Origin: an uncultured Candidatus Bathyarchaeia archaeon
GTDB lineage: Archaea > Thermoproteota > Bathyarchaeia > 40CM-2-53-6 > RBG-13-38-9
Assembly: GCA_964480955.1 (NCBI GenBank)
Contig: CAYZRW010000001.1
Location: 49,650-113,649 of the forward strand
Direction of reading: 5' to 3'
Length of the DNA stretch: 64,000 nt
This document shows positions 2,581 through 25,366 of this stretch, piece after piece. The notes beneath the pieces were generated by a model. That model searched no databases. It saw only the letters and a program-made list of their open reading frames with translations, and was not told the DNA's origin. The first letter of the stretch is position 1. The number at the start of each line of letters is the position of its first letter. The translations under genes and the position numbers were made by a program.

Positions 2581-4223
2581 GACTCCAATTTCACTCCGCT
2601 ATCAGGGTGAGAGGCATATCGAGGGCTCGGATCATCAAACCTCTTTGACATGTATGGTCCCTCTAGGCCGTATCCGAACCTCATAAAGTATCTTCTTGAA
2701 CCGAGCGCACTGGTTACGAGAATCTTCTTGCAGTCGTACTCGTTCCACGCTATCTCCTCTGCCTCACTGAGCAGACCGGCCCCGAAACCTCTGTGCTGCC
2801 ACATTTCTGGATTGGACTCTCCTACTGGAACTAGGGGTCCTAGGACATGAATCTCCCTAATCAGGCCGGCTCTTCCTTCAGCAACCTCTCTTCTATGAGC
2901 CCTCTCCGAAGGGATTCGTAGCCTAGCATATCCAACCAGACACTCAGAGGCCGGGTCCTCTACTGAAATGAAGACCTCAACACCTCCGGAGGCCTCATAA
3001 GTTCTGGTCGTCAACTTCAGGTCATCCATTTGGGGGGGTCTCTCTCGCCTCAACAGTCTGTGGCCAACCTCCCTGCACCTGATACATCTACACTCGAGAC
3101 CTTCCCGACGCATCCTGTTGAGGACAATCTCACGAAGGTTTCCCTTCTTGACACCTGCAACTATCAAGTAGGCCGGGATATCCCTCTGTATCCGCATAAT
3201 CCTGACCCAAGGCGGAACCATCTTCTTGATCATGCTCAAGAGTTCAACCGTCTGGTCCAGCTCGTAAGGTTTGAACCACCCTCGTACCCACCAGTCATAG
3301 AGTTTAGTTCCCCTCAGCACTAGACACGGGTATATCTTCAGCATATCCGGCTTGAGGTCTGGGTCGGTGAAGAGTCTCTCGAAGGCTTCAAAGTCCCTCT
3401 CGGGACTGGAGCCCGGCAGGCCGGGCATCATGTGGGCGACAATCTTCAAACCTGAATCCTTGAGTGTCTGGAATGACTTTACAACCTCTCCTACGTGATG
3501 GCCCCTGTCAACTAGACTGTAGATGTCGTCGTAGAGGTTCTGGACCCCAACCTCAACCCTAGTCACGCCCATCGACAACATATTATCAACATCATGTTCA
3601 GCGGCACAGTCCGGCCTGGTCTCCACCGTGATTCCAACATTCCGATTCATGCTCCAAGTCGCGTTCTCCATAGCCTCTTCCAGAGAGCTTGAAGGATGAT
3701 CCGTTATGGCGTCAAGACACCGTTTGATGAACGCCCTCTGATACTCGATTGGGGAGGCTGGGAAGGTTCCTCCCTGAATTATCAGTTCAATCTTGTTGAT
3801 GGTGTGGCCGATAGCTTTGAGCTGACTCAATCTGCTCCTGACTTGGAGGAATGGGTCGAACAGGTTCTGTATTCCCCTCATCGCGGCAGGCTCTCTTCCA
3901 GTGTAGCTTGAGGGCACACCCTGCTCATGTGGACAGTAGGCGCACCTGCCGTGAGGGCAGTCCCTAGGTTGACTCATGACCGAGACGATGTTTACTCCAG
4001 ATATGCTCCTCACTCGCTTAAGCTGGAGGGTGGAGGTCAGGGTGGCCCTATCCGCTTGGTGTGCTAGGGAGAGTATCTCTGAGTTTCTTGGTAGAGATGT
4101 CGTGTGGAAACGCCTGCTCGACTTGAGTTTCAGTCTGTTGATGTCTACAGTCTCCTCTGAGTCTTCCATCAATCTGCTCAGCACTTCGCGGCAGACCGCT
4201 TTGTAGGCCTCAGACTCCTTCAT
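2577..4223 (-). CDS. elp3: Elongator complex protein 3 homologue (tRNA U34 carboxymethyl-modification enzyme): radical SAM domain plus GNAT acetyltransferase domain
   Basis: 548 aa. It has a CPHGRCAYC radical-SAM cysteine cluster, a central Elp3 core, and a C-terminal GNAT domain (HRGFGAGLL). An ATGA overlap couples it to gatD. Confidence 0.85.
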   Translation of the reverse strand: MKESEAYKAVCREVLSRLMEDSEETVDINRLKLKSSRRFHTTSLPRNSEILSLAHQADRATLTSTLQLKRVRSISGVNIVSVMSQPRDCPHGRCAYCPHEQGVPSSYTGREPAAMRGIQNLFDPFLQVRSRLSQLKAIGHTINKIELIIQGGTFPASPIEYQRAFIKRCLDAITDHPSSSLEEAMENATWSMNRNVGITVETRPDCAAEHDVDNMLSMGVTRVEVGVQNLYDDIYSLVDRGHHVGEVVKSFQTLKDSGLKIVAHMMPGLPGSSPERDFEAFERLFTDPDLKPDMLKIYPCLVLRGTKLYDWWVRGWFKPYELDQTVELLSMIKKMVPPWVRIMRIQRDIPAYLIVAGVKKGNLREIVLNRMRREGLECRCIRCREVGHRLLRRERPPQMDDLKLTTRTYEASGGVEVFISVEDPASECLVGYARLRIPSERAHRREVAEGRAGLIREIHVLGPLVPVGESNPEMWQHRGFGAGLLSEAEEIAWNEYDCKKILVTSALGSRRYFMRFGYGLEGPYMSKRFDDPSPRYASHPDSGVKLES

Positions 4224-10158: not shown

Positions 10159-10656
10159 TCATGTGGTGAGTTTGGGAACGATATTCCGGATGAAGAAGTC
10201 AAGCCCGTAGGTCGTTATTCTGTACTCGCCCTTGCCCACCCTCTCGACTAGACCTTCGGTGCACATCTCGCTTATTCTGCCGGCCACTGTTCCAGCAGCC
10301 TTCTTTGTGTAAGCTATCAAGTCTCCTATCAGGGCCTTGTCAGAATCTAGATGTTTGGTGATGTAGCCTACGTGAGCTTTGGAGAGGTTGAGCAGAATCA
10401 GTTCTCGGTCAGTCAAATGTTCGGTTGGGACTGTTACCACAACGCCTTCCAGTGTGAGTTTCATTATTTGGGAGCATGAGGAGAGGAGTTCCTCCTCGTC
10501 GACTGTTAGAGTTATCTTTGATATGAACTCGAGTTTGGGTATGTTCGCTGACATGAAGCTTATCAACTCACGGATCACCTCATTGACGTCTCCCCTGATC
10601 TTCTTCTCGAGGTCCCTGTATTTGATCGAGACCTCGACTGTCCTATCTTCGCTCAA
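10159..10656 (-). CDS. paralogue 2 of the tandem family
   Basis: 165 aa: MSEDRTVEVSIKYRDLEKKIRGD...GLVERVGKGEYRITTYGLDFF. Same architecture as its neighbours. Confidence 0.55.
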   Translation of the reverse strand: MSEDRTVEVSIKYRDLEKKIRGDVNEVIRELISFMSANIPKLEFISKITLTVDEEELLSSCSQIMKLTLEGVVVTVPTEHLTDRELILLNLSKAHVGYITKHLDSDKALIGDLIAYTKKAAGTVAGRISEMCTEGLVERVGKGEYRITTYGLDFFIRNIVPKLTT

Positions 10657-11122
10657 CCGCTACTCCTCCAGGCCTCATGGACTTGACCATGTTCTCTACC
10701 CAATGTTTTCCTGCTACCGTGAGTCTGTATGTGTCGCCCTCTTTGTAGGAGAAACCTTCACGTTTGAGTTCGCTGAGTCTGCTTGCGAATCCGACTGATA
10801 GGAATCCGCTGAGACTCAGGAGGCGACTGAGTTCTCTCGGCCTCACGCCTCTTGGGTCCATGGCGTAGAGCAGGATGCCGACCGCCTCTCTGTCGGTAAG
10901 TTTCTCTTTTGTGACTGTCAGGACCGGCCCTTCGGTTGTCACTTGGACTATTCCTGAGAGGATGTCCTTCTCCCCTACTGCGGCTGACTGGCTTGTAATC
11001 ATGCTGTCGATGACCTCGAGCCATTCAGGGAAGTCTTTCAGGCGGTCTATGATCTCGTCGAAGTTCTCGCCTTCCAGTTCTATGTCGCCGTAGCTTCTGT
11101 GGAGTACGAGCCTGACCTTCAA
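10643..11122 (-). CDS. paralogue 3 of the tandem family
   Basis: 159 aa: MKVRLVLHRSYGDIELEGENFDEI...GFSYKEGDTYRLTVAGKHWVEN. A TATA-like box lies 33-41 nt upstream. Confidence 0.55.
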   Translation of the reverse strand: MKVRLVLHRSYGDIELEGENFDEIIDRLKDFPEWLEVIDSMITSQSAAVGEKDILSGIVQVTTEGPVLTVTKEKLTDREAVGILLYAMDPRGVRPRELSRLLSLSGFLSVGFASRLSELKREGFSYKEGDTYRLTVAGKHWVENMVKSMRPGGVAVERR

Positions 11123-11241: not shown

Positions 11242-11739
11242 TTACCGCAGCTTTCTGAGAACCTCATTCTCAACCCACTGTACACCGGCACCTGAGAGGG
11301 AGTACTTCCCGTTCTCAGCCACCAGTCGGCCCTCCCTTCTGAGTTCACTTGCTCTTGCCCTAACCGCTTCAGGCTTCATAGTCTTCCAGCTTGAGCTGAG
11401 GAGATTGCTTAACTCATCACATTCGATTGTTGCAGGTCGGGCTGCGTAGAGGATCAGTGCCAAAGCCTCCTTCGCCTTTAAGGTATCGACGGGAACCGTG
11501 AGCCTGGGTTTGCCTTCAGGTGTGAGCTCAACCACACCTTGTAGGGAGGGCGCGACTTGCATCTCTTGCCCCTCAAACTCAGAGAGCGTCTTTTGTAAAG
11601 AAGGTTGCTCACGGTCTGTTCTTGGGAGATTCTCCAAGAGCCTCTCGAAGCATTCTTTCACATATGTGAAGTTGCCTTCGAGCTCTACCTCATAATCCCC
11701 ACATCTTATTCGAAATCTCAAAGTCCTGTCTTCGCTCAA
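11242..11739 (-). CDS. paralogue 4 of the tandem family
   Basis: 165 aa: MSEDRTLRFRIRCGDYEVELEGNFTYVKECFERL...GRLVAENGKYSLSGAGVQWVENEV. It shares the MSEDRT N-terminus with paralogue 2. Confidence 0.55.
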   Translation of the reverse strand: MSEDRTLRFRIRCGDYEVELEGNFTYVKECFERLLENLPRTDREQPSLQKTLSEFEGQEMQVAPSLQGVVELTPEGKPRLTVPVDTLKAKEALALILYAARPATIECDELSNLLSSSWKTMKPEAVRARASELRREGRLVAENGKYSLSGAGVQWVENEVLRKLR

Positions 11740-12230
11740 CGGCTAATTTCTCCTATCTAGCTTCATCGCTGAGTTCTGAGTCACCAACTTAGCTACCAAG
11801 CTATATCAATAAAGGTCTTTTGCGGTCGCGCTGAAGATTTCTGGGGGTTAATCCATTTATTTTAATCGGGACCGTTCAGACTCCACATAGGCCCCCCGCA
11901 TAACTCAGCCTCATCCGCAGCAACTTAAGAGCGAATGCCGATGACTACGCCAATCTTCAAGCCAACTGCAGAAACCAAATCCTTCACAGTAAGAACGTTA
12001 TCTCAAGAGCCCAAATCCCAGTGACGGTCCCTAACGCTCTGCGGATTCGTCCAGTTTCATCAACCTCTTCAAGATATAGGCTCATGTTGCGCATATTCTA
12101 GACGAGTCCAGCAGAAAAATATTTGTGAAAGGCATGGAAGATTTGTGATCTAAGCCATTGTTTGCGCTTTACTTGCAGTGAACTCTGATAGCTGATCCGA
12201 GAGTGGCCGAGATCCTACGCATCAGGGTGC

Positions 12231-12449
12231 ATGGGACGGTTAGAAGTTAGGTGGAGTAAGATGTTGAGTGAGAGCCGACCAGGTCGACCGCGTCAACTTC
12301 CTTATGAGGGAAAACTCAGAAGAAGGACTGTTTGGTTGACGGAGAAGACTTGGCGACGAATCGAGGAGTGGTCACAGAGCAAAGGATGCGCCAGTATCAG
12401 TGAGGCTGTCAGGCAACTGGTGATGCGTGGGCTCGAAAGCCAGCAGTGA
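12231..12449 (+). CDS. ribbon-helix-helix (CopG/Arc-like) DNA-binding protein
   Basis: 72 aa: RRTVWLTEKTWRRIEEWSQSKGCASISEAVRQLVMRGLE is a beta-strand followed by two helices, the typical RHH fold. The real start may be the internal Met (MLSES...). Confidence 0.5.
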   Translation: MGRLEVRWSKMLSESRPGRPRQLPYEGKLRRRTVWLTEKTWRRIEEWSQSKGCASISEAVRQLVMRGLESQQ

Positions 12450-12577
12450 TTTGGGTCAGCCAGCCTCCTACGTTTTGCCACAAGTTTCAAAACGGATTAG
12501 TCTAGGAAGAGGCTTGGTAAGACCTAGCTCACTCAGAAAAACTCTTTATCTTGACCTAGTACCAAATATCGAGGCAT

Positions 12578-12717
12578 GCGGCCGTAGTCTAGATGTGCGG
12601 TCTGGAGTAGCCCGAAGACCCAGAGCACAGGACAACCTGGTCTAGGACATTGGCCTTCCATGATCAACATACAGTCGAAGCAAGCCAACGACCCGGGTTC
12701 GAATCCCGGCGGCCGCA
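12578..12717 (+). tRNA. tRNA-Gly(UCC) containing two introns: 43 nt in the D-loop and 22 nt at 37/38
   Basis: Exons GCGGCCGTAGTCTAG (12578-12592), CCTGGTCTAGGACATTGGCCTTCCA (12636-12660) and AGCCAACGACCCGGGTTCGAATCCCGGCGGCCGCA (12683-12717) assemble into a 75-nt cloverleaf. Acceptor stem GCGGCCG/CGGCCGC. D-stem GTCT/GGAC with D-loop AGCCTGGTCTA. Anticodon stem TTGGC/GCCAA with loop CTTCCAA (anticodon UCC). Variable loop CGAC. T-arm CCGGG-TTCGAAT-CCCGG. Discriminator A. CCA is not encoded. Confidence 0.65.
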
Positions 12718-12724
12718 CACCACT
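12704..12724 (+). repeat. attL core (overlaps the tRNA-Gly 3' end)
   Basis: Near-identical to 24348-24366. Similarity continues weakly downstream (GCAATGAA.TAG). Confidence 0.65.
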
Positions 12725-12842
12725 AGCAATGAATAGATACCACTCTGGGAAATGTGGGGTCTTGAAGTAAATCGCGCATTAGGGACAACGCTGCTTCTGG
12801 TCTTTAAATGGCAGCTTATATACGCTTAGACCACTTGTCAAA

Positions 12843-13565
12843 TTGTGTGTCTCACTCATGTGGTTGGGAAGCACTTTCTACAGAAACTGTGACATTGTTG
12901 TTCTTGCACTTTATCCGTTAGTCTCTATACCAGTAGTTACCTTGTTGCTGAGGATAGTTGAGATACCGACAGCAGCACTAATCTGGCTCACCTTCACGAC
13001 AATAATCATAATGGGTTGGCAGTCGTTGCGTGAAACTCATGAAATCGTGATTCTTCCGAATATTACTATATATGGAATTCGAAGGGGTGCGGGTTCGGCA
13101 GCGTTTGAGTCTCCGGTTAGGGCTCGTCAATCTAGACTCACATTCATCCATCGGGCAATACGTCGACCTTTGCTGAAGACAGAGGAATTTGGTCTTATGG
13201 ATCACTATGTTGTCACTTTTGATATTGGAAATGTTGGCTTTCACGACGTTACTCTACATGAGTACTTTGTGGAGAAGGAGGAACCATCTCCCAAAAGCAA
13301 AGTTACAGGATTGATACCTCTTTTTGGCGATATAGGTCAAAGAAAGATACTGCACAATGGAGAAAGAATAACTGGACAGTTCGGTTTACAGATTCAAGAT
13401 GATTGTCTTACTGTTTTCCGGATAAACATCATATGTGTTGGACTCGAGGCGTCTAGAAGGTTATACGTTCTCAAGAAAGGAGATAGGTTGCAGTACTTTG
13501 ACGCTGCAAGAAAAATTGGTCTGAATCGTCAGAAGACAGAAAGAGCTTTACTGTCAAAGTCATAG
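12843..13565 (+). CDS. hypothetical membrane-anchored protein (element cargo)
   Basis: 240 aa with two N-terminal TM helices then a soluble domain. AT-rich codon usage. No recognisable motifs. Confidence 0.35.
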   Translation: MCVSLMWLGSTFYRNCDIVVLALYPLVSIPVVTLLLRIVEIPTAALIWLTFTTIIIMGWQSLRETHEIVILPNITIYGIRRGAGSAAFESPVRARQSRLTFIHRAIRRPLLKTEEFGLMDHYVVTFDIGNVGFHDVTLHEYFVEKEEPSPKSKVTGLIPLFGDIGQRKILHNGERITGQFGLQIQDDCLTVFRINIICVGLEASRRLYVLKKGDRLQYFDAARKIGLNRQKTERALLSKS

Positions 13566-13586
13566 AGAGTGGCCCAAGCGTGTACG

Positions 13587-15005
13587 CTATTTACCTGCCA
13601 GAATCTCCTTTTTCAACGTCTCTTTCAATTCTCTGCTCAGTAGTTGAATCTCGTAGGCTTCTCTCTCACCTGCTGAGACACAGATCCTATGTGGTTCAGC
13701 TAACGCTTCCCTAGTCAGTATCTTTTCAGGGTCAAGACCCATACCTCTAGTAAAGGTCTTCAGCATCTCAATCTTCGAAACTTTGGTTTTGGGTCTAATA
13801 CTGAGACCAGAAGCAGAGTAGACGTTTCTCAGAAACTCAATGCCCTTCATCTGGATGTCATGGTAGGTATCGATAGTGTGACCCATCATGTAATCAACAT
13901 AGTCTGATTGAACTCCCAAAGCCATGAGTTGAGTCTTGAAGAACTTCCGAATACTATGCACCTTCAGGTCGTAGACTCTGCCCCTATTGGGCTTCAAGAG
14001 TCCTGCTTTGAAATACAATCCATGTACTAGCTGGTAGATCTGCTTCTCACCAATCGGCTTAGGAGTTCCCGAATTTGCATCCTTTATCAAGGGTGAATCA
14101 TCTGTGATGTCTTCGGGAGGGATCTTGCCGTCTGGTGAACCCTTCCGTCTAGTCTCCAAGTAGAGCTTCAGATATTCCACAGCTTCTTGGCCTAGAAATG
14201 TGTCATAATCGTGATACTTGCCTTTGGTTATGTCTGCCTCAACATGAATGTGAAGAGGGACTATCCCACGTTCCAGATCCTCTTTGACATGACCGTAAGT
14301 CAGCTTGATTAGGGTACCTTCTCTGAAGCCCCCCAGAGCCAGCAACGAGATTATGACTTTCTCACGGAGATCCGCTATGTCTAGTAGCTTTGCGAGTTCT
14401 TCAGGCCTTGGAGCCCGGTCCTTTCTGATGGTTCTCCGTTGTAGTGGGAAGGGGAGTTTTAGATCGATTCCGTGAACGCGGTATAGTGCTCTGATAGCCT
14501 TGACGTAGTTGCATATTCTGCATGGTGCAAGTCCTTCGTCTTGAAGTTCTGCGACAAATCGCTCTAGAGCTTTGATATGTTCTTGGAGTCTTTCATGTCT
14601 TACTTGTCCCTCTTCATTCTTCATATTACCGACAAGTTCGTCGGGGGTTAGATTGAGATAGTTGCAGTATCGTGTGATACAGTCTACATACAAGTAGAGT
14701 GTCTTGGGGCTGCCTGTCCTATACCTTAGAAGGTAGTTAGCAAGATTCTGTAATGCGAGGTTCTGAAATACATATGGGATCAGTCGAGGTCGTTCCCTCA
14801 GAAGAGAAGTGATGATATACTTGACAAGCCCCTTCTGGCTTACTGCCCTTAGATCCTCAAGAGGAACCTGAACTGGTGTTTTGAGTCTAGACCCTTCAGA
14901 ACTGTACTCTAACAGGAAACTGGTGTCTTCAATTCTCCCGAGACTCGTTAGAAACGGGAGGTCCTCAAGTGTAAGCATCCTTTCTTTCAAGATGAGTTCT
15001 GTCAA
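13587..15005 (-). CDS. int: tyrosine recombinase / integrase (intact, non-partitioning type)
   Basis: 472 aa. C-terminal catalytic region has HSIRKF (HxxR) ... GHTIDTYHD (nucleophile Tyr). It is adjacent to the tRNA att site. Confidence 0.75.
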   Translation of the reverse strand: MTELILKERMLTLEDLPFLTSLGRIEDTSFLLEYSSEGSRLKTPVQVPLEDLRAVSQKGLVKYIITSLLRERPRLIPYVFQNLALQNLANYLLRYRTGSPKTLYLYVDCITRYCNYLNLTPDELVGNMKNEEGQVRHERLQEHIKALERFVAELQDEGLAPCRICNYVKAIRALYRVHGIDLKLPFPLQRRTIRKDRAPRPEELAKLLDIADLREKVIISLLALGGFREGTLIKLTYGHVKEDLERGIVPLHIHVEADITKGKYHDYDTFLGQEAVEYLKLYLETRRKGSPDGKIPPEDITDDSPLIKDANSGTPKPIGEKQIYQLVHGLYFKAGLLKPNRGRVYDLKVHSIRKFFKTQLMALGVQSDYVDYMMGHTIDTYHDIQMKGIEFLRNVYSASGLSIRPKTKVSKIEMLKTFTRGMGLDPEKILTREALAEPHRICVSAGEREAYEIQLLSRELKETLKKEILAGK

Positions 15006-15119
15006 GGGTTATCGCCATATGTCGAGGGCTCTTGTGTACTTGTGTACAAGAGTATGAAAGTGTAGAAACCTAGATATAAACGCCTTGGTACACCTATCCT
15101 TAGGTACAAGGGAGCATAA

Positions 15120-15281
15120 ATGGCTCGCTGGCACGTGATAATTCCAGACGACCTTGACAAGAAGTTCCGAATGAGGGTTCTGGAGGAATATGGAAGTGAG
15201 AAGGGTGCTCTTAGTAAGGCCGTAGCCGAGGCTATTGATCTCTGGTTGAAACAGAGAGAATCAATGCCTAAGAAATGGTAG
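15120..15281 (+). CDS. small ribbon-helix-helix protein (53 aa), missed by the >=60 aa ORF track
   Basis: ATG at 15120: MARWHVIIPDDLDKKFRMRVLEEYGSEKGALSKAVAEAIDLWLKQRESMPKKW. This is a beta-strand plus two helices, as in CopG/Arc/MetJ. Preferred over the antisense ORF 15002..15298. Confidence 0.5.
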   Translation: MARWHVIIPDDLDKKFRMRVLEEYGSEKGALSKAVAEAIDLWLKQRESMPKKW

Positions 15282-15284
15282 CTT

Positions 15285-15545
15285 CTAGACGACTTCACGC
15301 ATCTCCAATATGGCTTTCTTTAGTATTGCGAGTCCACTTGATCTAATCCTAGCATTCTTTGGTGGATTTGGCTCAGAGAATCGCTCCCAGACTAGGCGAA
15401 TGAAATCATCACCCTCGTAGTCAAGCCAACCGACACATTCACGGGTCCAAGGCCGATATTCTGAGGAGTCTGAGTCTTTGAATAATACATGATCTCTGTA
15501 GCGCACATAGAACAGTGACCCCGACTTCTTCTTCTGTACCAACAA
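15285..15545 (-). CDS. hypothetical protein (element)
   Basis: 86-aa ORF placed between the helicase-module gene and the RHH gene. No motifs. Confidence 0.3.
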   Translation of the reverse strand: MLVQKKKSGSLFYVRYRDHVLFKDSDSSEYRPWTRECVGWLDYEGDDFIRLVWERFSEPNPPKNARIRSSGLAILKKAILEMREVV

Positions 15546-15558
15546 TAATCGCCCAGCC

Positions 15559-16380
15559 TTACTTGGTCAGCCTCCAATAGCCATCAGGATCCTTGGCCAG
15601 TAACCCCTCATCTTGAAACCTCTTCAGATAGCCCTCGGCCTTGGTGCGGTCTCCAGTCACCTTCATAGCTTGCTCGACAGCATAGTCCCAGCTCATGGGG
15701 CCCTTCACAGTTCGAAGTCTTCCGAGAACAAGGTCACGGACAGAATACTCCTCGTCTTTGCAGTTAAGCGGTGGTGCAGAGGATCTAGAGGCTGTAGATG
15801 TTTCCGGAAGGGTAGTTTCTACGTTGAAAGAGCTGTCAGAAGGCTCCCCTATCTTCCCTTTATTGCTCAGTTGCTCAGAATGCTCAGAACCAAGTGATGT
15901 TTCCCCTATGTGATCTCTGAGCAACTGAGCATCTGAGCAACTTTTAGGGGATATGAGGGTACTCAAAGTTTCAGTTCTTTTGACGTCATAGGTCGCGGCT
16001 AGCCGGTCGATGAGATCCCTATCGGTGACGATTGCGTAGCTACCTTTTGCATCAGGCATTCTAGCCTTTTTGAAACCGAGGCGAGCCAGAATCCAACCGA
16101 CTTTCTGAGGTTTGATACTGTCTTTCTCATCTCGCTCCTCGTTCACCTCTTCCGTGATAGCTTTGATAGGCAAGCGATCTCCCACGACTTGATCTAGACA
16201 TGTCACTATTGCTCGCACCACTTCTGCCTCTAAGCTGCTGGCTTCCTCTTCCCGCTGTTCTTGAAAGACGCCTAAAGCAAAGTCTTTGAGTTCGTCTTGG
16301 ATCTCATCGCTTGGAGCCACTTTGAGAAGGGCGTGGAAGATCTCGCCAACCCGACCATAGCGGTTCATGGTTTCGAACAT
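15559..16380 (-). CDS. hypothetical protein with C-terminal winged-helix domain; probable partner or C-terminal module of the SF3-like replication protein
   Basis: 273 aa. C-terminal YSVRDLVLGRLRTVKGPMSWDYAVEQAMKVTGDRTKAEGYLKRFQDEGLL. It directly follows ORF 16381..17112 (stop and start are adjacent). It contains an internal octamer repeat array. Confidence 0.4.
   Translation of the reverse strand: MFETMNRYGRVGEIFHALLKVAPSDEIQDELKDFALGVFQEQREEEASSLEAEVVRAIVTCLDQVVGDRLPIKAITEEVNEERDEKDSIKPQKVGWILARLGFKKARMPDAKGSYAIVTDRDLIDRLAATYDVKRTETLSTLISPKSCSDAQLLRDHIGETSLGSEHSEQLSNKGKIGEPSDSSFNVETTLPETSTASRSSAPPLNCKDEEYSVRDLVLGRLRTVKGPMSWDYAVEQAMKVTGDRTKAEGYLKRFQDEGLLAKDPDGYWRLTK
15862..15943. repeat. 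iteron-like array: three (T/A)TGCTCAG octamers, a ~25-bp spacer, then three inverted copies
   Basis: attGCTCAGttGCTCAGaatGCTCAGaacc ... tctCTGAGCaaCTGAGCatCTGAGCaactt. Located inside the coding sequence of the putative replication-module gene. Confidence 0.45.
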
Positions 16381-17112
16381 CTATGGTGTCCTCTCCTCGA
16401 ATTTTCGAAAACGGTAGCGGAGCAGTTTGCTTCTGAGAGTTTGAGCCCAAGCTAAGTCGATCTTCATAGGGATCTCACGTTGGTTTCGAACCATTCGGAT
16501 GAAGATACATCTAGATCCAAGTGAGTCGGGTGGCTGCCGAGTTCCTGCCAAGACTTTCGGTGAGAAAACCTTGTAGATGATAAGTTCAGAACCGGAGTCG
16601 CTTTCCCTTGGGCGTCTAGGGACAACTGAGCCTCTGCGGTAACCTGCATTAAAGAGGCCATCCAACTCGTTTCTTGTCTCTTTGGGCCAGAACTCGTAGT
16701 TGTCCGCTAGAAGAGTTGGACAGTAACGGTCAACAACCCAGAATACGACGGCTGGAGTCGGATGTGTGATATGCCAGCCTCGAAAGCAGAGCTGCGCGAG
16801 AACCTCTAAGGCTTTTGTCTTCCCTGTATTCTTTGGGCCGAGGAAGTCAAGGTAGGGTACAGCCTCAAACTCTTCAATCCTCCATGTCATGAGGATGAAG
16901 CAACTCATAACGGTGTAGCACTTCTTCTCTCGTAGCTCAAGATAATGTTGGTTGAACTCGCGGACCTCCTTGAAGAGCTCCAGGTCCGAGCCGTAATCGA
17001 TTGGAGAGCCCGGCAAAGGCCAAAGCGGCTGCTTCAACGGAACAAGGATTCCCTCATCCTGAGTGCCCGGGAATTGAATGTCGTCACGTGTTTGCCAAGA
17101 GCCGTCAGACAT
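16381..17112 (-). CDS. P-loop NTPase, SF3-helicase-like (plasmid/viral replication-protein type)
   Basis: 243 aa. Walker A FLGPKNTGKTKA resembles the SF3 GPPNTGKS/T. A downstream hydrophobic-D (VVFWVVDRY) and LLADNYE are possible B and C motifs. Confidence 0.45.
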   Translation of the reverse strand: MSDGSWQTRDDIQFPGTQDEGILVPLKQPLWPLPGSPIDYGSDLELFKEVREFNQHYLELREKKCYTVMSCFILMTWRIEEFEAVPYLDFLGPKNTGKTKALEVLAQLCFRGWHITHPTPAVVFWVVDRYCPTLLADNYEFWPKETRNELDGLFNAGYRRGSVVPRRPRESDSGSELIIYKVFSPKVLAGTRQPPDSLGSRCIFIRMVRNQREIPMKIDLAWAQTLRSKLLRYRFRKFEERTP

Positions 17113-17361
17113 CTTCTCGTGGATAGCATAGTAGCCGCCACAACCGGGGATCTTTATCTGCTCTACTATCGTTAATTGCCAGATCCCGCCAGGAGACTCT
17201 GTTCTTCGTGGCTGCTCCTCATTGCCAGAACGTTCATTACCCTGCCTTCGGCTTCTAGATATCTTAGCTCACCTTCCTTGCTGGCTGCAGGGTGTGTTGA
17301 GCCGAGGTTAGGAGCGGCCGCGAACCTTTCCTAACCTCCATTTTATTCGTCATTGTTCATG

Positions 17362-17715
17362 TCAACCGAATCTCGAGATTAACTTGTTATTTGGACCTGA
17401 GAACTTGTACTGTCTGCCATGAAGTTCCGTACTTCCACCATTCCTTGCCAACATATCAACGAGCATTTGAGCGACTGGGTGGTTTAAGTTGCGAAAGATC
17501 CAAGCTCCTTTACCGGATCTGAATGATTTCCAAGGGAGCTCCTCGGGGGTCTCTTTTGTAAACTCAGTTTTACCAATCATCTCAGGTGGAGATTCCTTGA
17601 TATTCTTCTCAATCTTCTCTAGCTCGCCAAGACATTCCTCCAGTTGCTGTCGAATTGATTGGATAATCGATAGCGCGATTTCAGACAACTTCAGTCTCAC
17701 CTTGTTTTTGACCAC
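17362..17715 (-). CDS. hypothetical protein (element)
   Basis: 117 aa with a coiled-coil-like N-terminus. No motifs. Confidence 0.3.
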   Translation of the reverse strand: MVKNKVRLKLSEIALSIIQSIRQQLEECLGELEKIEKNIKESPPEMIGKTEFTKETPEELPWKSFRSGKGAWIFRNLNHPVAQMLVDMLARNGGSTELHGRQYKFSGPNNKLISRFG

Positions 17716-17920
17716 CTTCGCTCTTTGTTATACTCGGAATTGTCGGTGCGTAGATACCGAGCGCCTTCTTCTCCTCTGGGCTGAGGTAGGAAAGTTTAGC
17801 TAACTCTATCTTGACGGCTCTGCGGACTAGATCGCTTACATCCTCGCCTCTGGCTTCTACAACTTTGCGGAGGACCGTGAGTGTCCTTGGATCGAACCTT
17901 ACCACAATCTGGTTAGCCAT
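17681..17920 (-). CDS. ribbon-helix-helix protein (80 aa from the internal ATG)
   Basis: MANQIVVRFDPRTLTVLRKVVEARGEDVSDLVRRAVKIELAKL. GGAGG lies 7 nt upstream of the ATG at 17920. The longer ORF N-terminus has no support. Confidence 0.5.
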   Translation of the reverse strand: MANQIVVRFDPRTLTVLRKVVEARGEDVSDLVRRAVKIELAKLSYLSPEEKKALGIYAPTIPSITKSEGGQKQGETEVV

Positions 17921-18000
17921 TATTGCATTCCTCCGCAATGCCTTTGTATGCGAGGTATTTAGAGAATGAACACAGTTTACGACTAGCTTAAGGTGGTCGT

Positions 18001-18705
18001 TTGTCGCTAATCCCAATAGCAACTTTTCAACATAGAAAGAGAACGCGTCGTACTCCAACTCAGTCAGCGGTACTATGGTATCTTGCCCTCGAACGCCCCG
18101 CCAACTCGTACACATTAACGAAGCTTACAAAATCCAATCGAAGCAGTGTCCAGATAGCTGTCAAGAATCTGGTGAGAGACTTCCTAATTTCGAATGTGAG
18201 GACCATCCTCAGTCGGAACAGGGTTAGGAGTAAGGTATACGACCTGACCATCTTTGGCCTTTTGACGGTTCTCTCAAACACTCGACAGGAGAAAATTGTG
18301 GCTCGCGTTGCTGAGAAGCATGCAGAGAAGCTCCCTCTGATCCTTGGAAAGTGGCCTGTCTTCATTGAGAGCCATGTCGATCCTTTAGCTCTGAAGATCC
18401 TGAACAAGATGCTAAAGATAGAATGGAGTGGGGAACTTCGAAGGGAAAAGCCTGGAACCAAGACCTTCCAAACAAAATTGGCGGAGGAAGCGACAATGAT
18501 GTTCTATCTTGGCGCAGCTGACATACTGGATCCAGACGAGCTTAAAAAGTGGGTGACGGTATTCAAGATTGACAAAGAGATCGCCGACAAGTTCCTCCAT
18601 ATCTTGACTCAAGAAGAGGATTGGCATCGTAGAAGAGCAAATGAATTTCAGAAGCAGCGTATAGAGATAGCACAGAGCCTCCAACCAAATTCACGGGAGG
18701 CCTAG
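18001..18705 (+). CDS. winged-helix transcription regulator-like protein
   Basis: 234 aa. N-terminal wHTH (SAVLWYLALERPANSYTLTKLTKSNRSSVQIAVKNLVRDFLI). TTG start. Confidence 0.4.
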   Translation: MSLIPIATFQHRKRTRRTPTQSAVLWYLALERPANSYTLTKLTKSNRSSVQIAVKNLVRDFLISNVRTILSRNRVRSKVYDLTIFGLLTVLSNTRQEKIVARVAEKHAEKLPLILGKWPVFIESHVDPLALKILNKMLKIEWSGELRREKPGTKTFQTKLAEEATMMFYLGAADILDPDELKKWVTVFKIDKEIADKFLHILTQEEDWHRRRANEFQKQRIEIAQSLQPNSREA

Positions 18706-18720
18706 CTGATCTCCTCTCGG

Positions 18721-19194
18721 GTGACTGTGAGGGGCCCTTCTCAGAGGAGCAGTAGATTGAAGCTCGAGATCGAGCTGGTTCCTAAACCTCTCTGGGGGAA
18801 GACTCTGGCGAAGATGTTGCCGAGAGACGAATGGGAGAGGTTGAGAGTTCAAAGGATCCAGGAGAAAGGTGAGAGATGCGAGATCTGTGGACAGGAGGGG
18901 CGTGTCCATCTTCATGAGATCTGGGAGTATGATGATGAGAGGCATGTTCAGCGGCTTGCAGGGTTCCAGCTTCTCTGCGCCACATGCCACTCCATAAAGC
19001 ACTTCGGCCTCACCCAAAACCTGGCGGCTGAAGGGAAGATTAACCTAAAGCCCATCACCACACACTTCTGCAAGGTCAACAACTGCACATTCCAGGATTT
19101 GAAGAACCATTGGAGGTCAACATATGAGAGATGGAAGCAGAGGTCTCAGCATCAGTGGACACAGGACTTAAGCCGACTGAAACAACCCAGCTAA
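18721..19194 (+). CDS. HNH endonuclease
   Basis: CEICGQEGRVHLHEIWEY...FQLLCATCHSIKH fits the CxxC...HxH...N...LCxxCHxxKH HNH signature. Confidence 0.65.
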   Translation: MTVRGPSQRSSRLKLEIELVPKPLWGKTLAKMLPRDEWERLRVQRIQEKGERCEICGQEGRVHLHEIWEYDDERHVQRLAGFQLLCATCHSIKHFGLTQNLAAEGKINLKPITTHFCKVNNCTFQDLKNHWRSTYERWKQRSQHQWTQDLSRLKQPS

Positions 19195-19331
19195 GTTTTC
19201 CAACTATTCTTCTCCAGCTACCCGTGTAATCACTTCAATGCTTATGTTCGGACCGCCATAGGGCAGAAAGACCTATCTCAAACCAAGCTGTAGATCATGA
19301 GCAAAGCTGAAAGGTAGGAACGGTTGCCGTT

Positions 19332-20282
19332 TTGCCGTTCTGTTCCAGATGTGGTAGAGAACTGCAACCCAATTGGAGGTTCTGCATGCATTGCGGAACA
19401 TCTATCACTACTCCTATTCCTATACCTCCAGCTATCCCGTCTCAGCCCATCAAGGAATCGCATATCATAAGGAACATCTTCATCGGTGTGATGTTTGTCC
19501 TTGTTATTGGAATCTTCGCGGTTGCACTGTCTGTGCCGAGACCACCAGCAGTGCCTGGAGGCCCGACTGTGCCTCAGGTACAAGAAGGTGGGACAGTTAC
19601 CATAGGGCAACCATTCATCTTGAAGTTTGGAACAGATGGTATACCTGTCAAATTTGTTTTCGACTCAGCTTGGTTCACTACAACTCATGAGTACTATGAG
19701 GCAGAAAGCGGATACAAGTTCTTAATCGTCCAACTAACAGCTCAGAACATTGGAAACAAAGAGGTAATTGCTTTCAGCTGGTTAGACAAGTGGGAGGTTA
19801 CTGTAGACAAAGGCTATCTTTACGAATCAAAATCCAAACCTTCGCTGAACGTTAGGCCAGAGGAAAAGAAGGAAGAACACATCATATTTGAGATTCTTCA
19901 AGAAACAAGCCCCGTGGAAGTCGGATACTACAAGTTTCTCTCGACATCGCCAAGCGTAGTCCTAAGTTTGAAAGGAGTTGGCTTTGCGACAAAAACTGTG
20001 GCAGCAAAGGAATGGCTCACCATAGATTCTTATGAGTGGCCTAAGGGCGGAACTTTGACCATTCAGATAGAGAACTACGGGTCCGTCAGCGCCACGATTG
20101 ATAAAGTGTACATTGACGAGCTTCTTGCCTCTGATGAAGATAAGCTAATCAAACCCAAAGCTGTTGCCGAGGTTAAGTGCAGTAATCCTCAAGGGCTTTC
20201 TTTGAAATCCAATAACATCTACAAGGTAAAGATAGTGACTACGGTCGGTAACACATTCGAATCCACAGTGTACTACAAGTAG
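19332..20282 (+). CDS. Zn-ribbon / TM / extracytoplasmic beta-domain protein (DUF4352-like architecture)
   Basis: N-terminal CSRCG...CMHCG ribbon, one TM helix, then a domain with YKFLIVQLTAQNIGNKEV, which resembles DUF4352. Confidence 0.4.
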   Translation: MPFCSRCGRELQPNWRFCMHCGTSITTPIPIPPAIPSQPIKESHIIRNIFIGVMFVLVIGIFAVALSVPRPPAVPGGPTVPQVQEGGTVTIGQPFILKFGTDGIPVKFVFDSAWFTTTHEYYEAESGYKFLIVQLTAQNIGNKEVIAFSWLDKWEVTVDKGYLYESKSKPSLNVRPEEKKEEHIIFEILQETSPVEVGYYKFLSTSPSVVLSLKGVGFATKTVAAKEWLTIDSYEWPKGGTLTIQIENYGSVSATIDKVYIDELLASDEDKLIKPKAVAEVKCSNPQGLSLKSNNIYKVKIVTTVGNTFESTVYYK

Positions 20283-20294
20283 GATGATAGGAAA

Positions 20295-20849
20295 GTGGCT
20301 GAGAGAACCGCTGAATTTATCCTCGGGCTGATAGGTGGAATCTCAGGCATACTTGTGGCTCCAGCACTTTACCTTCTTGGAGGCGTCTGGATGGCTTTCG
20401 GAGGTCCAGCTACATTAGTGATCGCATCAATCGTGGGGGGAATCCTGTCAATCCTTGGGCTGATCGGAGTGGCATTCGTCAAGACTCAACCAAAACTATC
20501 TGGAGTGATCATGCTCATAAGCGGCATCCTGGGACTCATTGTTGCATTAGGACTATACGTAGGCGCCCTGCTATTGACTGTTGCTGGCATCATAACTCTC
20601 GTCCGGACAGAAAAGCCAACAGAGATTCCATCGGTACCCACCCCTCAGCCAGCGTATTACTGTACAAACTGCGGCAAGCCTTTGAAGTTCAACTCACAAC
20701 TCCAGAGATGGTATTGTGAAAGCTGTGGTGTCCGTGCCCCGACCAAGGATGAACTCCTACGATACGCCATGAAAGCGCTTGACCAAGGAGACACAGAACT
20801 CGCCAAGAAATTCATGGATCAAGCACGATCAATGTCTGAATCAACGTAG
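20295..20849 (+). CDS. polytopic membrane protein with a C-terminal zinc ribbon
   Basis: Four TM helices, then CTNCGKPLKF...CESCG. Confidence 0.4.
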   Translation: MAERTAEFILGLIGGISGILVAPALYLLGGVWMAFGGPATLVIASIVGGILSILGLIGVAFVKTQPKLSGVIMLISGILGLIVALGLYVGALLLTVAGIITLVRTEKPTEIPSVPTPQPAYYCTNCGKPLKFNSQLQRWYCESCGVRAPTKDELLRYAMKALDQGDTELAKKFMDQARSMSEST

Positions 20850-21288
20850 TCCAAAGTGAACTCAACCTAGACCGTCAAGCAATCACTAATCCATCTCTAT
20901 CTCTAACATTCGACGACAAAAGTAACAGATGATGTAGTTTTGGTTCATCTTCAGTTTCTCCTCTTTGTCTTCTCCAGCTCTTCGAGTAAAATAGTTGAGG
21001 ACTAGGCGAGGTTATCTGGACCATTGAGCCTGAGAGGCTGCGCATAGTCGAGACCACTGTAACGCATCTCAACAGGGCTCGCCAATGACCAATAGGAAAC
21101 TCACATTCCGCCTAGCTGATGATATAATAAGTGCATACACGAAGGTTGATAGAGACGGGTCGGGAGTAAACGGGACCGACATTAAGGATGCACTATGCCT
21201 AGTTGACCCCAGGCTCTACTTAGTCATTATCCATATTGACAGTAAGTTTATAGGGGGCTTGGTTTAACAATTAGTTTAACGAAGAAAC

Positions 21289-21582
21289 ATGACAAATGAA
21301 AAGATTGTTGGGTTTAGGGCGGATGATGAGGTTCTCAAAGATATAGCGTATCTCAAGATGGCTTTTGGTTGTGACACTGATACATCAGTCATTTTGATGA
21401 GCCTAAAGCTGGCTACCGAGTTGACAAAGGCGAGGGTTCTTTTGAAGGATGCTGAAACAAAGCAGATGAGCGTTCTTCTTGATGCGATCAGTGAATCAAA
21501 CAAGCAGTTGCGGTGGCTTTTTGAAAATATGGAGTTGATTAAACGTGTCTTGGGTCGGTCGGATTCGAAATCGTCCGGATAG
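21289..21582 (+). CDS. hypothetical protein, possibly RHH-like
   Basis: KIVGFRADDEVLKDIAYLKMAFGCDTDTSVILMSLKLA is a beta-strand then helices. Confidence 0.3.
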   Translation: MTNEKIVGFRADDEVLKDIAYLKMAFGCDTDTSVILMSLKLATELTKARVLLKDAETKQMSVLLDAISESNKQLRWLFENMELIKRVLGRSDSKSSG

Positions 21583-21986
21583 GTCATCATCCATCAAGCT
21601 GCCACCTTGAAGAGACTACTAGCTACTCTTAACAAAACCGCTCCCCATGAATAAGAAAGGGCAGTCCTCTAAGAGAAGTATGACAGATGCGACTCCAAGT
21701 AGCCAGCCTAGACTTAGAACCGCTGCGAGTGCACAGACTAGACGGCTATTGAGGCTGCCAAGGAACAGTAGGGACCTCCCACCTTTCCCATAATAGGGAC
21801 CGAGGCGCCGGAACAATTCCTTAAGATGCAGCTCCCCTATAGCCTCAACATTGAGATGGAAAACACTCCGCTTCTCAATGCAGTTCAAAACACCCCTAAC
21901 CAAAGACGCCAAACACACGTTAACCCCCTGACACTCCCAACTTTCATCAAAGAAACTTACTTGCAAAAAACAAGCAATCAAACAAC

Positions 21987-22315
21987 AAAATTTTTAGGAG
22001 TTTGCCGTCAAACCGTAAAACCGTGAAGCCATAAGTTTCTCTTGTATGCTCTGGGCCCTGATGGGTTACGCTGTCACCTGTCTTGGATGTTTGGTTCTTG
22101 CTTTTCTAGAGGCTGAGAAAAGACATTTGTAGGCTGGAAAATTCTTATTCGCTGCCTATTTATTCGTGAATTCACAGGCGAGGTTGAAAGCTAGATTGAC
22201 GCAGCAGGAACACAACCTCTCAAAGAGAAGATAACGATCTCTTTGCCAAATCTTAGGTATTTTTATGCTTTAACGGTTTTACGGCGAGTTTACCTAACCT
22301 AAAAATTTTGTCAAT
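21987..22315. repeat. MITE-like or origin-like structure: ~45-bp imperfect inverted repeats flanking ~240 bp of AT-rich non-coding DNA
   Basis: Left arm acaaaatttttagg...ccgtcaaaccgtaaaaccgtgaag and right arm ctttaacggttttacggcgag...cctaaaaattttgtcaat. The two arms are reverse complements over two 12-13-bp blocks. Confidence 0.4.
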
Positions 22316-22721
22316 AATTGCTAGGTTTGTTCTAGGTGCATGTTGGTTTCGTCAGCGAAAGTCAGGGTTCTGAAAGGTAAGTTGGCACTATGGCGTCCTT
22401 CTTGCTTGCAAGGAATAGTTGTCTAGGTTGGAGTCTGTAATGTGGTTAAGCGGTTTCTGCTTTCCTATTGTGTCGTCTACGAGGTTGAAGTTCATTATTG
22501 TTGCTGCTTTTTGAGATGTTCTTATTGTGTAGGTTCTTGTGTAACGTTGGTCTTGTCCTGTCAAGAGGGCTCTGGATATGGAGGCGTTTGAAACTTTGTT
22601 CTCTGCCGCTGTAGGATTCTCTAGTCTCAGAAGTGGCTCCGAATCTCCCAGTTAGGTTGGATGTGTAGGGTTTTTCAGAAGTTTCGACGTCGAAAGTGAA
22701 TCTTTATTCAAGTGGAATCAA

Positions 22722-23411
22722 ATGGATTGGTGGAGTTCCAATTGTGTCCTGTCTAAGGGAGAGGAAGGAGGGTTGACTACCGCACTGCCACCCACCCCCA
22801 ATGACACTTACGCCTTGTGGAGAGTAAAATTTCTCAAGCCTAAACCTTTGCAAAATGAGGTTTTGAGGGCTTTGTCTCAAGTTGAGAGATCAAGTGTTAA
22901 AGGTTTAGCTTCAGATTTGAAGAGGGACAGACGCTCAATTCAACGTTGCCTAGAGAGACTGAAAGACGACGGCGAAGTTCACGATGTATGGTGCCGCCCA
23001 GCACCTTGGATCAGCCCTAAAATCATTGCTCATTACCACTCTCTCCCAACTCACCTGAAGAGCAAGACCGAACATAGCTCCTCTGACTGTGAAGAGGTTG
23101 TGGAGGAGCCTTTAGGATTCAGGATCCTAAGACTATTCTCAAATTTCCAGTGCTTCACAGTCGGCAGCGTTTCGAAGTTGCTTAAGAAACATCATAGCCA
23201 AGTAAGGAAGGTTCTGAAGACTCTTCACCGGCATGGCCTTGTCGATTATACAGAACATAAGACTGGAAGGGACCCAGACTCTCTGGGAAAAATATGTTTC
23301 TGGTTTGTCAACGATGAAGGCCGAACCTTAGCCGGACAGTCCGTAAAGGAATATGATTGTGTTGTTCGTAGGCGTAGAGGCGGAATAGCCTATAGGCATC
23401 GGGTGTCGTGA
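22722..23411 (+). CDS. tandem winged-helix (MarR-like x2) transcription regulator
   Basis: Two wHTH units (NEVLRALSQVERSSVKGLASDLKRDRRSIQRCLERLKDDGEV and FRILRLFSNFQCFTVGSVSKLLKKHHSQVRKVLKTLHRHGLVDY). Confidence 0.45.
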   Translation: MDWWSSNCVLSKGEEGGLTTALPPTPNDTYALWRVKFLKPKPLQNEVLRALSQVERSSVKGLASDLKRDRRSIQRCLERLKDDGEVHDVWCRPAPWISPKIIAHYHSLPTHLKSKTEHSSSDCEEVVEEPLGFRILRLFSNFQCFTVGSVSKLLKKHHSQVRKVLKTLHRHGLVDYTEHKTGRDPDSLGKICFWFVNDEGRTLAGQSVKEYDCVVRRRRGGIAYRHRVS

Positions 23412-23458
23412 CGCGTTACCTGAAACTATTTGAGTTAGTTAACGTTGCTTCTGTAATT

Positions 23459-24166
23459 CTATAATGTACTGGGATGTGGTGTCTTTCCATCTTCTCTGAG
23501 ACGTGGAAACTCAAATCGGAATAACTCCGTCTCCGCATAGACACGTCCAACTAAGCCCCTATAATCTAGCATAGGTTGACGGGCTCGAACTGCGCTGAGG
23601 ATTTGTGATTTGGCGTCAATACTCACGAATTCCCTATATTCTGAGTGAATCACGCCTTCCCGGAATACACATTCTCTCATTTCTTGAGGATAGACACTTA
23701 GTAAGAATAGACCAGCGAGAGCTCTAACCGTGAGACGAAGATTCATCTTGTTGAATAAGACCTCAAGGTTATGCTTGAACTTCGAATACGCTTTGAACCA
23801 CTCTGGTGATTGATTGCTTGAAAATTCTTCGAAAGGTCTTATGATACCGTAGTCACGAGGTAAGACACGCACACCCAACTGTGAAAGCTGATAATGCGGC
23901 TCGAATGCTTCCCTGAAGTCATCTATTGATACAGTCTCTTTGTTGATTCTTGGATATCCTTCGTAGCCTTCATATTTGGCCATGCGATAAAAGGCGGTTT
24001 CAATCCAATTTCCGACGCTAGAGGCTAGGGACGCCAACTCAAACGAGATGACTTCATCGTGCCTTTTGATGAGGGGAACGAATCGTATAAACTCAAGAAA
24101 CTTATCTTCAAGTTCGCGATATGCTGCCCAATAATCACTAACTTCAAGTGGTGTAGCGCTTTCCAA
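23459..24166 (-). CDS. hypothetical protein (element cargo next to attR)
   Basis: 235 aa with no clear motif. Weak Rx5H (REAFEPH). Confidence 0.3.
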   Translation of the reverse strand: MESATPLEVSDYWAAYRELEDKFLEFIRFVPLIKRHDEVISFELASLASSVGNWIETAFYRMAKYEGYEGYPRINKETVSIDDFREAFEPHYQLSQLGVRVLPRDYGIIRPFEEFSSNQSPEWFKAYSKFKHNLEVLFNKMNLRLTVRALAGLFLLSVYPQEMRECVFREGVIHSEYREFVSIDAKSQILSAVRARQPMLDYRGLVGRVYAETELFRFEFPRLREDGKTPHPSTL

Positions 24167-24347
24167 AAGGGTCCCCTCGCTGTTTAGCTATGTATGAAAT
24201 AACTGAAGATAAAGGTCATCGATCCTAGTTGATCAGAAGGATGTATAGGACAAATTATTGAGAGTTCTATACCCGTACTTGATCATGTGGTAGGAACGTT
24301 TTCAAGACGAGAGTGAGTGGGTACGTATTCAGTTCTAGATGATTAAG

Positions 24348-24366
24348 TCCCGGCGGCCGCACCACT
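24348..24366 (+). repeat. attR core (partial copy of the tRNA-Gly 3' end, T-loop not intact)
   Basis: tcccggcggccgcaccact, preceded by the degenerate ttaag instead of ttcgaa. Confidence 0.65.
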
Positions 24367-24455
24367 CTGGCAATGAACTAGTGTTGTTTATTCCAGTTTT
24401 CAACATGTGAGCAGGGTGGAGGAGGGTCTAAGAATGTTAAAGGTTCCGGACAGGG

Positions 24456-25100: not shown

Positions 25101-25366
25101 AGATCAAGGGTAACAAGCGCGCGCTCCACGTAGTCTTCTCTATTGATTCTTCTGTGCTCGTTCGTTCTTCATCTTGGACGGAGATTCGCTCTTCGACGAG
25201 TTCTTTCTCAGACTTGGCCTTCCGGCCAGATGATTGTGATCGTCTAGTGTGGATTACGCCAATAGTTGTGCCATATCTTCCAGATGTCACCTTGCAGATT
25301 GGTAACTTTATTGAGGAGGATGCGGTTCTAAGATGTAGTCTTGGGTGGCGATCCCGGGTAATCCAA

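Follow-up and report, generated by a model that had tools for sequence, protein, structure and literature searches.

A two-intron tRNA-Gly(UCC) gene in a Bathyarchaeia archaeon, with a predicted non-canonical D-loop intron and an integrated element at its 3′ end

The locus described here lies in a window of 64,000 nucleotides, by which we mean the whole stretch of DNA that was analysed, on a contig of an uncultured Candidatus Bathyarchaeia archaeon. Judged by its sequence, the segment from 12578 to 12717 on the plus strand is a real tRNA-Gly gene of this archaeon with two small introns, its three exons being 15, 25 and 35 nt long. A promoter-like element lies upstream of the gene and a mobile element is inserted at its 3′ end. 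The layout of the gene is as follows.

12537 to 12551, plus strand: promoter-like element AAAAC-TC-TTTAT-CT, at a fixed distance in orthologs
12578 to 12592, plus strand: exon 1, with the acceptor 5′ strand GCGGCCG, U8 A9, the D-stem 5′ strand GUCU, and A14 G15; invariant in all 10 two-intron sequences
12593 to 12635, plus strand: intron 1, 43 nt, non-canonical, at tRNA positions 15/16 in the D-loop; boundaries fixed by intron-less and one-intron orthologs
12636 to 12660, plus strand: exon 2, with the remainder of the D-loop CCUGGUCUA, the D-stem 3′ strand GGAC, A26, the anticodon stem 5′ strand UUGGC, and the loop nucleotides CUUCCA
12657 to 12659, plus strand: anticodon UCC, within exon 2 and followed by A37 at 12660
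12661 to 12682, plus strand: intron 2, 22 nt, canonical, at 37/38; placed by a hand parse, by RNAalifold and by the 22-nt intron of ARAGORN
12683 to 12717, plus strand: exon 3, with A38, the anticodon stem 3′ strand GCCAA, the 4-nt variable loop CGAC, the T-arm (CCGGG-UUCGAAU-CCCGG), the acceptor 3′ strand CGGCCGC, and the discriminator A73

Just upstream of the tRNA gene are two paralogous small ORFs of 159 and 165 aa on the minus strand (10643-11122 and 11242-11739), a pair that is conserved beside the tRNA in the orthologous loci, including the intron-less L013; a Pfam search with one of the two gave no match.

Rfam RF00005 matches 12578-12717 (+) from end to end (model positions 1-71; 47.5 bits, E = 4.7e-07, compared to a gathering score of 29), with the alignment skipping two inserts, which in model terms measure 51 nt (D-loop) and 24 nt (anticodon loop, after the anticodon). 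When 12593-12635 and 12661-12682 are removed in silico, ARAGORN reports a 75-nt tRNA-Gly(tcc) with a clean cloverleaf, and when the D-loop insert alone is removed it reports tRNA-Gly(tcc) with a 22-nt intron. The hallmarks of a tRNA can be read directly (U8, A14, G18 G19, U33, A37, the T-loop UUCGAAU, and A73), and the 7-nt loop around the anticodon UCC has U33 and, at position 37, a purine, as in a Gly(UCC) isoacceptor. The original prediction had proposed both the identity as tRNA-Gly(UCC) and the presence of two introns, one of 43 nt in the D-loop and a canonical one of 22 nt; the former is borne out by the RF00005 score and the ARAGORN call on the spliced sequence, and the latter by the 75-nt tRNA that removal of the introns leaves, which matches the exons of orthologs with one intron (L014) or with none (L013).

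The unspliced gene is easily overlooked. ARAGORN makes no call at the raw tRNA-Gly locus in a scan of the window and, with introns allowed, no tRNA-Gly call in the raw 140 nt either, so that this program, which had been named in advance as a means of checking the gene, calls Gly(tcc) on the spliced sequence and misses the gene as it stands. Removal of the anticodon intron alone yields a call of tRNA-Pro, which we rejected as a mis-call. Rfam in 'evalue' mode finds no tRNA-Gly match in the entire window and only a local fragment of 22.8 bits in 12000-24600, and a gathering run of Rfam/Infernal over 15 loci missed every two-intron ortholog, including the near-identical copy in L019. With 47.5 bits in one mode and nothing in others, detection of a tRNA with long inserts is strongly filter-dependent, and we treat the Rfam misses as filter or alignment-mode effects of these inserts. 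The failure of ARAGORN to call the raw locus, and of Infernal with stricter filters to find any of the two-intron orthologs, could also be taken as signs of a pseudogene, i.e. a tRNA-Gly inactivated by the 43-nt D-loop insertion with another gene supplying tRNA-Gly(UCC); the comparisons below bear on this explanation.

A scan with a 22-nt exon word over one genome per GTDB species gave eight hits, all of them in Bathyarchaeia MAGs and one per genome. An insert at the identical position in the D-loop is present together with the canonical intron in four of the eight (L011, L015, L016 and L018), one (L014) has the canonical intron alone, and three (L012, L013 and L017) are intron-less. A metagenome scan contributed five further distinct two-intron copies (L019, L021, L022, L023 and L025), and a D-loop intron at 15/16 is thus found in nine Bathyarchaeia sequences besides the window. 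Chance is excluded as a cause by the identical architecture in these nine other distinct MAG or metagenome sequences. The spliced window tRNA is identical to the exons of the one-intron ortholog L014 at 75 of 75 positions, and to the uninterrupted gene of L013, which itself scores 70.1 bits with Rfam, at 74 of 75. In most loci the genes that precede the tRNA show synteny with the window, at 71-76% nucleotide identity, so that the loci are orthologous and come from different species. Many metagenome contigs, drawn from several samples of JGI, Logan and ENA, encode proteins identical to those of the window, and in six of them the tRNA region is identical too; the neighbours on the matching contigs include the archaeal markers ribosomal protein S30e, GatD/GatE, Elp3 and NurA/HerA.

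The orthologs also settle the position of the D-loop junction. Only removal of 12593-12635 reproduces their D-loop sequence AGCCUGG, so that the junction is exactly at 15/16, and the earlier view that the boundaries of intron 1 are ambiguous by 1-2 nt has to be given up. It is the canonical intron, not intron 1, that permits a slide of 2 nt (CA/CA), and ARAGORN places it shifted by 2, leaving the product unchanged. A separate observation concerns the T-loop, which reads UCCGAAU or UCCAAAU, with C55 where U55, the pseudouridine site, is almost universal, in six related lineages (L011, L015, L018, L021, L022 and L025), and UUCGAAU in the window, L016, L023, L013 and L014.

Across the 10 two-intron sequences the exons are invariant except at five positions, and the first three nucleotides of intron 1 (AUG) and its last eight (CAGGACAA) do not vary at all, with the interior of the intron divergent in sequence and its length ranging from 36 to 44 nt. 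Upstream, the motif (A)AAAC(Y)CTTTAT is found at an equal distance in 9/9 two-intron orthologs, with TTTAT spanning -33 to -29 relative to the mature 5′ end and with diverged surroundings. The archaeal BRE/TATA consensus is known, and on this basis AAAAC-TC-TTTAT-CT is a putative BRE/TATA-like archaeal promoter. These patterns speak against the inactivated gene introduced above. Its exons are held nearly constant within diverged intron interiors and flanks of ~70-76% identity, the intron ends required for bulge-helix geometry are invariant, the pairing of the intron hairpin is kept by compensatory changes (see below), and the promoter-like element stays at its fixed distance. Moreover, the exon 22-mer has a single match per genome, where a pseudogene calls for a second gene as the supplier. 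We note that the D-loop motif is without an outer helix, as described below, which would fit a pseudogene; even so, we consider this explanation very improbable.

By the accepted rule, an archaeal splice motif consists of a 4-bp helix H and two 3-nt bulges on opposite strands, with the cut after the second nucleotide of the bulge (PMC4090602, PMC7714728); of the outer helices, h is exonic and h′ intronic, and each has at least two Watson-Crick pairs in the strict form hBHBh′ (PMC7714728, PMC4090602). Intron 2 has this strict form in a hand parse that was checked by script. Here h is the 5-bp anticodon stem, H pairs CUUC at 12655-58 (positions 32-35) with GAAG at 12677-80 through four Watson-Crick pairs, the bulges are CA/U and CA/A (the slash marking the splice site), and h′ joins GAU at 12662-64 to GUC at 12674-76 (G-C, A-U and U-G). 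RNAalifold recovers the motif unguided from the 10 sequences, in which H is paired in 39 of 40 cells with one-sided changes from UA to UG.

In intron 1 the 4-bp helix H joins GUCU at 12587-90 (positions 10-13), the D-stem 5′ strand, to GGAC at 12630-33 within the intron, with three Watson-Crick pairs and a G-U; this GGAC is a copy of the true D-stem 3′ strand. A 3-nt bulge, AG/A, holds the 5′ site; its third nucleotide is the first A of the intron, and h′ (UGUGC 12594-98 with GCACA 12625-29) starts at once and is extended by an inner helix into a longer hairpin with a stability of -5 to -12 kcal/mol. At the 3′ site, AA/C, the AA at 12634-35 makes up the 3′ bulge. The 4-bp H, the 3-nt bulge and the stacked hairpin are the unconstrained MFE fold in 9/9 distinct intron-1 cassettes. 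When the hairpin pairs are indexed from the continuous 3′ strand, double compensatory changes are seen at four positions (UA to GC, CG to AU, UA to CG, and UA to CG); H and the first two pairs of h′ never vary, so covariation cannot test those pairs.

No outer helix h accompanies this motif. U8 A9, on the 5′ side of H, cannot pair with C17 U17a, on the 3′ side of the bulge, and the BHB-constrained folds of nine sequences contain no h for intron 1. Two candidates for such a helix, pairing of U8 A9 with a downstream UA and a local downstream hairpin CCUG/UAGG, were rejected, with nothing in them conserved. Intron 1 is therefore of the relaxed HBh′ type, with a 4-bp H, a 3-nt bulge at the 5′ site, an h′ of at least 2 bp and a 3′ site 2 nt past H, and is not a strict hBHBh′, the outer exonic h of at least two Watson-Crick pairs being absent. 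Of the BHB motifs that the original prediction expected at the junctions, the strict motif of intron 2 and the 5′ bulge-helix of intron 1 can be upheld, whereas the part that falls away is the outer exonic helix of intron 1.

The comparison of folds depends on how the helices are aligned. RNAalifold on a MAFFT alignment did not recover the intron-1 helix because the bulges of the 5′ strand sit differently between lineages, a difficulty that indexing from the 3′ strand solved; in its place is a competing small hairpin at the 3′ end of intron 1, of CAGG with YCUG. Covariation on the same alignment is modest since helix registers differ between lineages. In the proposed structure of the precursor 92.4% of cells pair, compared to 29-50% when the partners are slid by 1-3 columns. 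Both motifs coexist in one fold of -49.3 kcal/mol, and the free MFE of the full precursor is -51.2 kcal/mol (z of -2.0) and is not the BHB conformer. The BHB-constrained fold lies above the free MFE by 1.9 kcal/mol in the window and by 1.5-7.6 kcal/mol in the orthologs, so that the global MFE is uninformative here.

Retention of intron 1 at one position over many lineages, together with its stable hairpin of -5 to -12 kcal/mol, might indicate that it is kept for a second product such as a guide sRNA or a stable RNA circle of the intron, and some archaeal tRNA introns do carry C/D-box guides. However, its conservation is limited to the nucleotides of the splice motif, with an interior that varies over 36-44 nt, and on direct reading both introns lack a C box (RUGAUGA) and a D box (CUGA); a role of this kind thus appears to have only a slight chance of being correct.

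Another alternative accepts that the D-loop insert is removed but dispenses with BHB-guided EndA, either through a different nuclease or by removal after splicing of the anticodon intron and refolding. We know of no other intron-removal pathway for archaeal tRNA. The 3′ splice site does lie outside a closed bulge, and the competing hairpin of CAGG with YCUG is possible around that junction, but the geometry of the 5′ site is textbook in 9/9 sequences, and the invariant intronic GGAC two nt upstream of the 3′ junction fits the symmetric measuring rule of EndA. Similar relaxed motifs are also documented EndA substrates (PMC3241643, PMC6379350), and we regard removal by any such other route as highly unlikely.

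We therefore favour, with a probability of roughly 0.88, the reading that this is a functional three-exon, two-intron tRNA-Gly(UCC) gene, the introns of which are predicted to be excised by EndA at bulge-helix motifs, strict at 37/38 and relaxed in the D-loop. By analogy with established archaeal tRNA splicing, the precursor would probably be transcribed from the gene's own BRE/TATA-like promoter ~30 nt upstream, and each intron would present splice sites two nt into 3-nt bulges flanking a 4-bp helix, the geometry that EndA reads. This archaeal RNA-splicing endonuclease would cut the four bulge positions, and an RtcB-type ligase would then join the exons. In the process GUCU would release the intronic GGAC and pair with the exonic one instead, giving the D-stem of a normal 75-nt tRNA.

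With the outer helix h absent, the 3′ cut of intron 1 would depend on the type of EndA. D-loops are among the places where relaxed hBH/HBh′ motifs are found, and such motifs require (alpha-beta)2 or epsilon2 enzymes (PMC6379350, PMC4090602). Motifs that are relaxed or lie in the D-loop are EndA substrates, with efficient cleavage limited to epsilon2 enzymes and to (alpha-beta)2 enzymes that have the crenarchaeal loop (PMC3241643, PMC6379350). We thus predict for the clade an EndA of broad specificity, either (alpha-beta)2 or epsilon2. There is no EndA gene in the gene tables of the window or of the orthologous loci examined, and a search of the literature did not find the EndA type of Bathyarchaeia. 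We also entertain, as an unlikely extension, that the intron at 15/16 marks a single Bathyarchaeia subclade by vertical inheritance and has a function over and above being tolerated, either in ordering D-arm folding or modification relative to splicing, or through an EndA architecture uncharacterised for the class. Intron 1 lies immediately 3′ of G15, where archaeal tRNAs have their archaeosine, and the D-stem 5′ strand is held in a decoy helix, through which the intron could order D-arm folding and modification with respect to splicing.

The DNA to the right of the tRNA gene belongs to a mobile element, with the following features.

12704 to 12718, plus strand: attL core TCCCGGCGGCCGCAC, covering the T-arm 3′ half, the acceptor 3′ strand, A73 and the base after it; a direct repeat, exact over 15 nt
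12719 to 24362, unstranded: mobile element of ~11.6 kb, inserted at the tRNA 3′ end; the tRNA is the attB and the element is not part of the tRNA
13587 to 15005, minus strand: tyrosine integrase of 472 aa, intact (PF00589, 32.8 bits with a cut-off of 27.1; PF16795, weak; PHROG_1, 1.2e-13)
18721 to 19194: HNH endonuclease (phrog_5200 at 7e-30)
24348 to 24362, plus strand: attR core TCCCGGCGGCCGCAC; beyond it lies the tRNA's original trailer CACTCTGGCAATGAAC, which matches the empty-site contig L019

Imperfect similarity of ~20 nt extends beyond the 15-bp att repeat. The element also encodes zinc-ribbon and membrane proteins and HTH regulators, its remaining ORFs (12719-24362) match no family and include no capsid or terminase hallmark, and its predicted circular attP junction has no match in IMG/VR. 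Its G+C content is 0.44-0.49, compared to ~0.52 in the flanks. Contig L019, from the same species, lacks 12719-24347, its tRNA being directly followed by window sequence from 24363 on, and the 11.6-kb block is therefore a discrete insertion. The PF00589 integrase, the 15-bp repeat and the element-free L019 allele are those of a pNOB8-like, tRNA-targeting integrative element, and they sustain the earlier proposal that the tRNA is the integration target of its neighbour. The tRNA of L019 has both introns, with one substitution in the loop of intron 1 relative to the window; as judged from this contig the introns predate the element, and they are outside its attachment site.

Several further observations can be made on this region. 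The empty site (L019), attR (24361-24368) and all orthologs encode CCA immediately behind the discriminator (GCA-CCA); the attL trailer of the window is CACCACT (12717-12725), with no CCA directly after A73, and thus the element has replaced the trailer. In L011 there is integrase-like DNA near the tRNA-Gly (3383-3900; 68% identical to window 13881-14405), and the L011 tRNA trailer ccacgctagcaatgaatagata resembles the attL side of the window, which suggests that related elements reuse this tRNA repeatedly. A second stretch, window 24426-27137, is likewise missing from L019, where 2.7 kb have been deleted between two GGTGGAGGAGG repeats (window 24414-24425 and 27139-27149; L019 7398-7409); lost with it are a transglutaminase-like ORF and, from the ClC/CBS channel gene at 25046-27508, the N-terminal two thirds. 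Within the element, ARAGORN calls a tRNA-Leu(cag) at 23084-23165 (+), inside the HTH/TrmB-like ORF 22722-23411; this is probably a false positive, since there is no Rfam tRNA match there at E up to 10.

Knowledge of multi-intron tRNAs and of D-loop introns reportedly goes back to the surveys of Marck and Grosjean and of Sugahara. The original prediction held that multi-intron tRNAs with D-loop introns are already known in archaea, and they are indeed established in Crenarchaeota, Thaumarchaeota and Aigarchaeota; tRNAscan-SE 2.0 lists 673 non-canonical introns in 217 archaeal genomes, mainly of Crenarchaeota and Thaumarchaeota (PMC8450103). Aeropyrum pernix pre-tRNA-Thr2(UGU) has a D-loop intron that the (alpha-beta)2 EndA of that species cleaves in vitro (Hirata et al. 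2011, PMC3241643), and the gene described here resembles it in having a non-canonical intron within the D-loop, a bulge-helix geometry moved there from the anticodon loop, and a host from a TACK lineage. The A. pernix precursor is, however, of another isoacceptor and has a single intron with a motif described as a canonical BHB, whereas the D-loop motif of this tRNA-Gly has no outer exonic helix and the gene has a second, canonical intron; for the A. pernix intron there is in vivo and in vitro evidence, and splicing of tRNA-Gly(UCC) is here predicted from sequence.

Among the Thermoproteales, Pyrobaculum islandicum tRNA-Pro(UGG) has introns at 25/26, 37/38 and 56/57 (Sugahara et al. 2007/2008, as cited in PMC4090602). 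As far as PMC4090602 and PMC8450103 describe the multi-intron tRNAs of this order, the likeness lies in the presence of at least two introns, canonical and non-canonical, with the latter often of the relaxed hBH/HBh′ forms, and these genes too are missed by standard tRNA finders. The differences are the host class, Bathyarchaeia being absent from the clades on which the surveys were trained, and the position of the intron at 15/16; there is also no sign, in ~250 kb of sequence, of near-identical introns in several tRNA genes, a feature considered in the comparison with Thermoproteales.

Non-canonical and multiple tRNA introns are likewise found in Thaumarchaeota and 'Candidatus Caldiarchaeum subterraneum' (PMC8450103, PMC3293823), and in Caldiarchaeum introns of the D-, V- and T-arms lie beside integrases, with an intron argued to have come with a mobile element (PMC3293823). 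The situation here is similar to that in these mesophilic or moderately thermophilic TACK archaea in that an intron-bearing tRNA gene adjoins an integrase-carrying element. Unlike in Caldiarchaeum, the element recombines at the 3′ end of the T-arm and acceptor, ~70 nt downstream of the D-loop intron, and the element-free L019 has both introns. Integration of archaeal plasmids and viruses at tRNA 3′ ends, the pNOB8 type, is described in PMC3293823. Compared with the type as outlined in that source, the element shares an intact integrase beside a reconstituted tRNA gene and a short direct repeat of the tRNA 3′ end as its boundary, and differs in that its integrase is on the strand opposite to the tRNA and its core repeat is only 15 bp with ~20 bp of imperfect similarity.

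A search of the literature found no description of tRNA introns in Bathyarchaeia. Given that Bathyarchaeia fall within the TACK/Thermoproteota radiation, a two-intron tRNA-Gly is to be expected there; the gene type is well known in related archaea, the find is correct but fairly ordinary, and it leaves the current view of archaeal tRNA splicing unchanged. Its main value is in annotation, because a gene that ARAGORN misses and that Rfam/Infernal finds only with lenient filtering would make tRNA-Gly(UCC) falsely look absent from Bathyarchaeia MAGs. The gene also extends the documented multi-intron, D-loop-interrupted tRNAs to Bathyarchaeia, and the 10 two-intron sequences, with their one-intron and intron-less orthologs, provide a small natural series of intron variants for the relaxed recognition of BHB motifs.
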